Shown: positions 11,024-11,703 of the stretch, piece by piece
Position numbering within the stretch: the stretch's first letter is position 1
Layout: each line of letters starts with the position of its first letter
Source: Escherichia coli
GTDB taxonomy: Bacteria; Pseudomonadota; Gammaproteobacteria; Enterobacterales; Enterobacteriaceae
Reading direction: 5' to 3' (one strand)
Length of the DNA stretch: 37,286 bases
Assembly: GCF_003334815.1 (NCBI RefSeq)
Contig: NZ_QOWO01000036.1
Made by a program: the position numbers and the translations under genes
Notes under the pieces: generated by a model
The model's input: the letters and a program-made list of their open reading frames with translations, nothing else
Database searches by the model: none
What the model was told of the DNA's origin: nothing

Positions 11024-11469
11024 ATCAGTCGCTCACCCTTGCTTTTTTGATTGCCGCCGGAATTGGTCTGGTTGTCCAGAACACGCTGATGGTGCGCATC
11101 ACCCAGACCTCCTCTACCATTCTCATCGCCATGTTGCTGAACTCACTGGTGGGGATTGTGCTCTTTGTTTCTATTTTATGGTTTAAACAAGGCATGGCGG
11201 GGTTTGGCGAACTGGTGTCCAGCGTGCGCTGGTGGACACTTATACCTGGCTTGCTGGGATCGTTTTTTGTCTTCGCCAGTATCAGCGGATATCAGAATGT
11301 GGGAGCGGCGACAACTATTGCTGTACTGGTCGCCAGTCAGCTGATTGGCGGTCTGATGCTGGATATCTTCCGCAGTCATGGCGTACCACTACGGGCGTTG
11401 TTCGGCCCAATTTGTGGCGCAATTTTACTTGTGGTTGGCGCCTGGTTGGTAGCCAGACGCTCATTTTAA
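11020..11469 (+). CDS. ydcZ: Inner-membrane protein (DMT-like, DUF606)
   Basis: 149-aa hydrophobic ORF, start overlapping the mnaT stop, implying translational coupling. Confidence 0.8.
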   Translation: MNQSLTLAFLIAAGIGLVVQNTLMVRITQTSSTILIAMLLNSLVGIVLFVSILWFKQGMAGFGELVSSVRWWTLIPGLLGSFFVFASISGYQNVGAATTIAVLVASQLIGGLMLDIFRSHGVPLRALFGPICGAILLVVGAWLVARRSF

Positions 11470-11703
11470 TCAGAGGATGGTGCCGCCTTTGGTTAACTGT
11501 TCGTGGCGCGCTTCCATATCTTCTTTATGCTTGCGACCGTGATGGGCGATCGCTGTGCGCAGACGTTGCTGCTGGGTGTAGCGATCTTCCCGACTTAACT
11601 CCGCGTCATCGCTCAGGGCGATTAATAATTCGTTCATATGGGCAATGACGCTCTCTTCAATCGCGGCATCCACGCGCGCGATGACTTCATCCAGATGCGA
11701 CAT
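11470..11703 (-). CDS. ydcY: Uncharacterized small protein
   Basis: 77-aa ORF, ATG at 11703 preceded by AAGGAG at a spacing of 5; its stop (11470-11472) abuts the ydcZ stop with no gap. Confidence 0.7.
   Translation of the reverse strand: MSHLDEVIARVDAAIEESVIAHMNELLIALSDDAELSREDRYTQQQRLRTAIAHHGRKHKEDMEARHEQLTKGGTIL

Follow-up and report, generated by a model that had tools for sequence, protein, structure and literature searches.

Abutting convergent stop codons of ydcZ and ydcY in Escherichia coli, and a ydcY 3′-end hairpin encoded within ydcZ codons

How does an mRNA acquire a 3′ end when its gene meets a convergent neighbor with no DNA between the two? The ydcZ and ydcY genes of Escherichia coli raise this question. 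We analyzed a 37,286-nucleotide stretch of E. coli K-12 DNA (the window) that is identical to MG1655 sequence and reversed relative to U00096.3. In the open reading frame (ORF) list, RefSeq and Pfam, ydcZ (11020-11469, + strand) encodes a 149-residue inner-membrane protein of the DMT family and ends in TAA at 11467-11469, while ydcY (11470-11703, − strand) encodes a 77-residue DUF2526 protein and ends in TGA at 11472-11470 (complement TCA). The junction at 11467-11472 thus consists of the TAA of ydcZ and the TCA of ydcY with a 0-bp gap. Read across, the sequence is ...cgc tca ttt TAA TCA gag gat..., with tca ttt TAA TCA gag at 11461-11475. The original prediction placed the two stop codons immediately next to each other on opposite strands, and the sequence, the ORFs and the RefSeq ends all agree. 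The RefSeq annotation of MG1655 gives both genes these same ends (locus coordinate = window + 1101), and we found no sign that either ORF ends elsewhere or goes unexpressed, the outcome that had been named as counting against the prediction.

The conserved C-termini indicate that ydcZ and ydcY are genuine genes with fixed ends. YdcZ matches Pfam family PF04657 (DMT_YdcZ) over model positions 2-140 of 140 (E = 9.5e-24), and YdcY matches PF10735 (DUF2526) over positions 1-77 of 77 (E = 1.2e-46); NCBIfam gave a family for neither protein. Across Enterobacteriaceae, YdcY orthologues are 77 residues long and 77-100% identical, and the C-termini ...GAWLVARR(Q/S)F-stop of YdcZ and ...TKGGTIL-stop of YdcY are kept across genera; at 78 other Enterobacteriaceae loci, the lengths and C-terminal residues of both proteins are maintained. 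Of 5426 complete E. coli genomes, 5375 contain the 1-kb junction region at ≥80% coverage. Some E. coli carry YdcY variants with in-frame internal deletions of 2-5 residues (P0015, P0061, P0068, and P0078; 72-75 residues), and since the C-terminus of these variants is unchanged, so is the junction. YdcY protein has been shown upon overproduction; ortT-ydcY is reported not to be an operon, and a sigma-D promoter is predicted for ydcY (PMC4344625). A consensus scan alone gives a sigma-70-like promoter match upstream of ydcY (TTGACG-16-TATCAT, 11746-11773, − strand). As the mnaT stop and the ydcZ start overlap in an ATGA (11020-11023, + strand; sequence, ORF list, and RefSeq), mnaT and ydcZ probably form one unit with ydcZ as its distal gene.

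A gap of zero is ordinary. In approximately 190 kb of MG1655 annotation, made up of the window and three arbitrary 50-kb stretches, seven of 35 convergent pairs have a gap of zero or less, a small sample counted by hand that puts the base rate above 10%, so that such gaps are not rarer than expected. The seven pairs are yiaV/yiaU (−4), gstB/yliI (−4), ybiO/rlmF (−4), ydcK/rimL (−9), hokB/yncP, yncO/ydcD, and ydcZ/ydcY (0). The three with a gap of −4 have the classic 4-nt stop overlap. Like ydcZ/ydcY, they have no intergenic spacer, but their stop codons overlap whereas those of E. coli ydcZ and ydcY abut. This common 4-nt geometry also occurs at the ydcY/ydcZ junction of Enterobacter soli, E. 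asburiae, and E. wuhouensis, where the genes overlap in a shared TTAA (~2731-2734 of the respective loci; L020, L029, and L074). The window itself holds a second spacer-less pair, ydcK (+) and rimL (−), with a 9-bp overlap at 29874-29882 (RefSeq). The original prediction described the abutting stops as "again" leaving no room for independent terminators, and the word probably refers to this overlap.

Is there in fact no room? Part of that claim stands, as the junction contains no intergenic DNA and a consensus scan called no intrinsic terminator at or near it. The other part does not, because ydcY has a 3′-end determinant of its own inside ydcZ. The strand-specific 3′-end mapping proposed as a check exists in published Term-seq data, which give an end for ydcY and list none on the ydcZ strand near the junction in any of three conditions (Adams et al., 2021). 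Supplementary file 1 of that study (eLife, PMC7815308) lists a 3′ end at U00096.3 1517918 (+), classed as "primary ydcY, antisense ydcZ", once on each of the three condition sheets, with average reads of 17670 in LB at OD 0.4 and 1884 in LB at OD 2.0. We located this steady-state end at window position 11433 (− strand) from the printed 61-nt Term-seq string, in which the 3′ end is nucleotide 51, and verified the reading on the aspU row.

From this end and the stop codon, the ydcY 3′ UTR is 37 nt long (11433-11469, − strand) and is complementary throughout to the last 12 codons and the stop codon of ydcZ. Within it lies a stem-loop, GCGUCUGG-CUACCAA-CCAGGCGC, with 8 bp including one U·G (11438-11460, − strand). 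The hairpin occupies nucleotides 10-32 after the ydcY stop, is encoded antisense by ydcZ codons 140-147 (Gly140-Ala-Trp-Leu-Val-Ala-Arg-Arg147), and ends 5 nt before the mapped 3′ end. In the ydcY sense, the 40-nt 3′ UTR folds with a ΔG of −14.3 kcal/mol (z = −3.9), and none of 200 shuffled sequences was as stable. In the ydcZ sense, the same region is weaker (−12.2 kcal/mol, z = −1.75), because the U·G turns into a C·A mismatch. Only the 40-nt fold stands out; folds of ~100 nt around the junction are unexceptional (z about −1.5). Directly 3′ of the stem is CAACCACAAG, which contains no U tract and whose fifth base is the mapped end. The hairpin thus has the GC-rich stem of an intrinsic terminator but neither the U tract nor, as shown below, Rho independence. 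Since 3′-end determinants need no intergenic space, the implied problem of missing room does not arise. The TERMITe supplements make no mention of ydcY or ydcZ. At the gathering threshold, Rfam places nothing at the junction. Its only hit is a sok antitoxin RNA at the end of the window (37134-37286, + strand, 72.4 bits, E = 2.3e-14); it adjoins hokB, and we take it to be the known hokB/sokB type I toxin-antitoxin locus.

Beyond the mapped end, transcription of ydcY depends strongly on Rho for its termination. Supplementary file 2 of the same study places a region of Rho termination, antisense to ydcZ, at 1518196 (+) (window 11155), with 164 reads upstream and 9 downstream in untreated cells and 213 and 185 with bicyclomycin (BCM), a Rho score of 15.8, and a significance of 2.2e-25 (Adams et al., 2021; PMC7815308). 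Bicyclomycin thus raises the downstream/upstream ratio from 0.055 to 0.87. As the Rho score uses 800-nt windows, the position of termination is imprecise, and the Term-seq and BCM data for ydcY come from this one study. On the ydcY strand, C exceeds G for ~280 nt past the stop codon, and the C/G ratio is 1.3-2.1 in 80-nt windows from +100 to +340, reaching 2.1 at +200 to +340; these ratios describe composition, not Rho binding. By this measure, a candidate rut tract, C-rich, G-poor, and untranslated, may lie at 11130-11370 (− strand), which includes the Rho peak. Because the ydcY mRNA ends inside ydcZ and Rho acts further into antisense ydcZ, the two transcription units overlap at their 3′ ends.

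A class of Rho-dependent transcripts with such ends has been described, in which the precise steady-state 3′ end lies just past a stable stem-loop without a U tract, the stem-loop protects against PNPase and RNase II, and the rut sites are downstream (Dar and Sorek, 2018; NAR, PMC6061677). ydcY shares the precise end past a U-tract-less stem, the BCM-induced read-through and, by composition, the C-rich, G-poor downstream region. As these features match, we provisionally assign the ydcY 3′ end to this class, in which case exonuclease trimming would apply to ydcY as well. Unlike the described examples, the ydcY stem-loop lies wholly inside the coding sequence of a convergent gene and appears to be kept through synonymous sites of ydcZ.

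We examined the junction at 80 Enterobacteriaceae loci encoding YdcY. ydcZ is the convergent neighbor at 78 of these; the remaining two, in a Pluralibacter metagenome-assembled genome and Enterobacteriaceae RIT714 (L013 and L066), lack a ydcZ in the 2.5-kb flank. At 54 of the 78 loci, the gap falls between −4 and +9 bp; at 15, including all six Escherichia lineages, it is exactly 0. As the gap is zero in only 15 of the 54 tight loci, what is conserved is tight packing, not an exact zero. We rejected selection for an exact zero gap, as genera with unchanged protein ends differ in their gaps, which range from −4 to +9. Gaps of 25-329 bp separate the genes at 23 loci; at one more, in Citrobacter amalonaticus S646, a 2049-bp insertion lies between them (L053, 2735-4783).

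The spacers are palindromes of high stability; those no longer than 101 bp fold at −9 to −65 kcal/mol. Sixteen of the 23, in Citrobacter and Pseudescherichia, contain the REP tail motif CTTATC(C/A)GGCCTAC, and the Kluyvera spacers are other GC-rich palindromes. REP and BIME elements are stable palindromes located past stop codons, where they can act as exonuclease barriers or as terminators. They are found in convergent intergenic regions, and the palindromes of Citrobacter, Pseudescherichia, and Kluyvera occupy exactly the ydcY/ydcZ junction. The E. coli hairpin, unlike these repeats, is unique coding sequence; the E. coli junction has no REP, and no match to CTTATCMGGCCTAC with one mismatch or fewer occurs in the window. 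A different spacer is present in Enterobacteriaceae bacterium 89 (L079), whose 329 bp (2735-3063) include, in the ydcY sense, a textbook intrinsic terminator (GCCCUGCAAUG...CAUUGCAGGGUUUUUUGUU) and differ from the REP-type spacers of other genera.

The hairpin follows the spacing of the genes. When ydcZ codons 138-148 were recoded synonymously 300 times per locus with ydcZ codon usage, in the ydcY sense the real hairpin was more stable than 95% of recodings at 41 of 77 loci, compared with only 21 of 77 in the ydcZ sense, and it is kept in most tight-gap genera. Its median energy is −18.4 kcal/mol at tight loci and −6.1 kcal/mol at spacer-bearing loci (Mann-Whitney p = 1e-7), a contrast in which the spacer-bearing set amounts to only about six independent lineages; at the level of genus groups (16 tight and 6 spacer-bearing), p = 0.0036. 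Across the stem pairs, 90.4% of alignment cells are paired at tight loci versus 70.7% at spacer-bearing loci. Spacer-bearing lineages encode the same peptide, and synonymous changes at Gly140, Ala141, Ala145, and Arg147 disrupt their stem. The rule has exceptions in both directions: C. amalonaticus and one other Citrobacter retain the hairpin despite REPs, and hairpins of the Enterobacter cloacae complex and Salmonella arizonae/diarizonae are weak despite tight gaps.

Individual codons show the same pattern. In tight lineages, the four stem wobble sites have an entropy of 0.68 bit, compared to 1.18 bit for all 4-fold sites (P = 0.03, a moderate effect), and in spacer-bearing lineages these four sites reach 1.40 bit. 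The gain in entropy with a spacer is +0.72 bit at the stem wobble sites versus −0.11 bit at other 4-fold sites (site permutation P = 5e-5), and wobble sites in the hairpin loop are among the most variable. Arg146 (AGA in E. coli, 11453-11455) is encoded by AGA at 49 loci, AGG at 9, CGA at 10, and CGG at 6, which accounts for all 74 loci with Arg at this position. CGC and CGT, which make up 68% of Arg codons elsewhere in ydcZ, never occur here. Codons ending in a purine give a U·G or C-G pair with the fixed G opposite. None of nine stem pairs changes on both sides, a test for compensatory covariation with low power, since one partner in almost all of the pairs is dictated by the amino-acid sequence and covariation could hardly arise. 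From these comparisons, it is reasonably supported that synonymous sites keep the hairpin where the genes abut, and that it usually decays by synonymous changes where REP-like palindromes have been inserted.

These observations can be joined in one model. Because the stop codons abut, the 3′ ends of the ydcY and ydcZ transcripts must overlap. A polymerase on ydcY would continue beyond the UGA into antisense ydcZ, where the untranslated, C-rich RNA would recruit Rho and termination would follow within roughly 300 nt. Exonucleases acting 3′ to 5′ would then trim the transcript back to the stable hairpin without a U tract, leaving the sharp end at 11433. Where ydcZ and ydcY abut, selection on synonymous sites, presumably acting through the stability of ydcY mRNA, would keep the hairpin in ydcZ codons 140-147, and the hairpin would be lost where inserted REP-like palindromes can take over its role. 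We consider this model of the ydcY 3′ end, taken whole, to be probably correct.

Could the hairpin instead stop RNA polymerase directly? A precise end 5 nt past a stable, GC-rich stem, seen in three conditions, is what would be expected if it were a non-canonical intrinsic terminator that lacks a U tract and halts polymerase at ~11433, with Rho only mopping up the leak. However, CAACCACAAG after the stem provides no U tract, the consensus scan made no call, and with BCM the downstream coverage is 87% of that upstream (185/213), which argues against efficient termination independent of Rho. We therefore find this explanation quite unlikely. A related idea, that the palindrome is a bidirectional terminator for both genes and that mnaT-ydcZ transcripts end at or just past the ydcZ stop, has a precedent in the 306 bidirectional intrinsic terminators described between convergent genes in E. 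coli (bioRxiv 10.64898/2026.03.23.713779). As in those cases, a single palindrome lies at a convergent junction, and in the ydcZ sense the hairpin is followed by UCAUUUUAA, a tail that is partly U-rich and extends over the stop codon. Yet this tail lacks conservation (many genera have CAG TTC TGA), the stem carries the C·A mismatch in this sense with a z of only −1.75, no terminator was called by the consensus scan, and no 3′ end on the − strand of U00096.3 is listed nearby in the three Term-seq conditions. Moreover, transcripts ending there would have no stop codon, or barely one. A bidirectional terminator has a 3′ end on each strand, with an A tract before the hairpin and a U tract after it, a combination that is absent here. 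The ydcZ/ydcY palindrome differs from them in that it is not intergenic, has no U tract on the ydcY side, has an end on one strand, and is Rho dependent, and a role as a bidirectional terminator seems to us very improbable.

A more general objection is that nothing here has a function: the zero gap would reflect neutral compaction, the hairpin would be a by-product of the conserved Gly-Ala-Trp-Leu-Val-Ala-Arg-Arg peptide and inherited codons, and exonucleases would simply stall at whatever structure exists. Gaps of zero or less are indeed common (7 of 35 pairs), the gap drifts from −4 to +9 among genera, covariation is absent, and several tight-gap lineages have weak hairpins. What such neutrality leaves unexplained is the strand asymmetry, as in most tight-gap genera the hairpin is more stable than its synonymous recodings, and this advantage is specific to the ydcY sense. 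It also fits poorly with the relaxation confined to stem wobble sites where spacers are present (P = 5e-5) alongside highly variable loop wobble sites, and with the exclusive use of rare codons at Arg146. We judge the lack of function unlikely, for the compaction and the hairpin and equally for the passive stalling of exonucleases.

On the ydcZ side, the missing 3′ end in the Term-seq data is probably due to low expression. A candidate reciprocal hairpin of ydcZ mRNA could form in the last ydcY codons (stem 11466-11496), but its structures differ between genera and only 18 of 51 loci beat 95% of recodings, with a median fraction of 0.15, a comparison that does not support it. The mnaT-ydcZ transcript might instead be terminated by Rho within antisense ydcY. 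Further along, a palindrome with T runs on both strands (11990-12007) lies 32 nt upstream of ortT. It resembles a terminator on the + strand and could be the end of mnaT-ydcZ read-through. Term-seq lists an "orphan" 3′ end at 11994 (−) (U00096.3 1517357), on the ortT strand and inside the ortT 5′ UTR. Another end, at ~12312 (+) (U00096.3 1517039, − strand), has 536300 reads in LB at OD 2.0 and is listed only as "antisense patD"; its position, ~60 nt past yncL and ~37 nt away from the stop codon of the convergent patD, suggests that it is probably the terminator of yncL.

At least 37 nt of ydcZ are covered by antisense ydcY RNA, and inhibition of Rho makes this overlap far longer. The arrangement recalls overlapping 3′ UTRs and excludon-type antisense systems (reviewed in PMC7154746). 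The likeness seen here is in the antisense overlap, not in any observed regulatory effect on ydcZ. One could go further and regard the tail-to-tail packing, conserved across Enterobacteriaceae, as a regulatory module, in which ydcY transcription and the complementary 3′ UTR would control mnaT-ydcZ through transcriptional interference, polymerase collision, or RNase III cleavage of the duplex, and Rho would set the length of the antisense RNA. In that case, the hairpin in the ydcZ codons would have a double role and be selected as RNA. We hold such a module to be highly unlikely.

For biology at large, the abutting stop codons carry little weight, as convergent genes commonly have stops that abut or overlap, and the ydcZ/ydcY arrangement is already annotated. 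The locus is a worked example that the lack of an intergenic spacer does not mean the lack of a 3′-end determinant. Such a determinant can be located within the neighboring gene, in its codons, and constrain the synonymous sites of that gene, even to the point of forcing rare Arg codons. What the locus adds is a small example, reasonably supported, of a protective stem-loop within a convergent ORF that appears to be held by selection on synonymous sites. The contrast between tight and REP-bearing lineages is a small natural experiment and suggests that, among Enterobacteriaceae, REP insertions can functionally replace hairpins embedded in codons. As a practical warning, recoding, codon-optimizing, or deleting ydcZ would probably alter ydcY mRNA.
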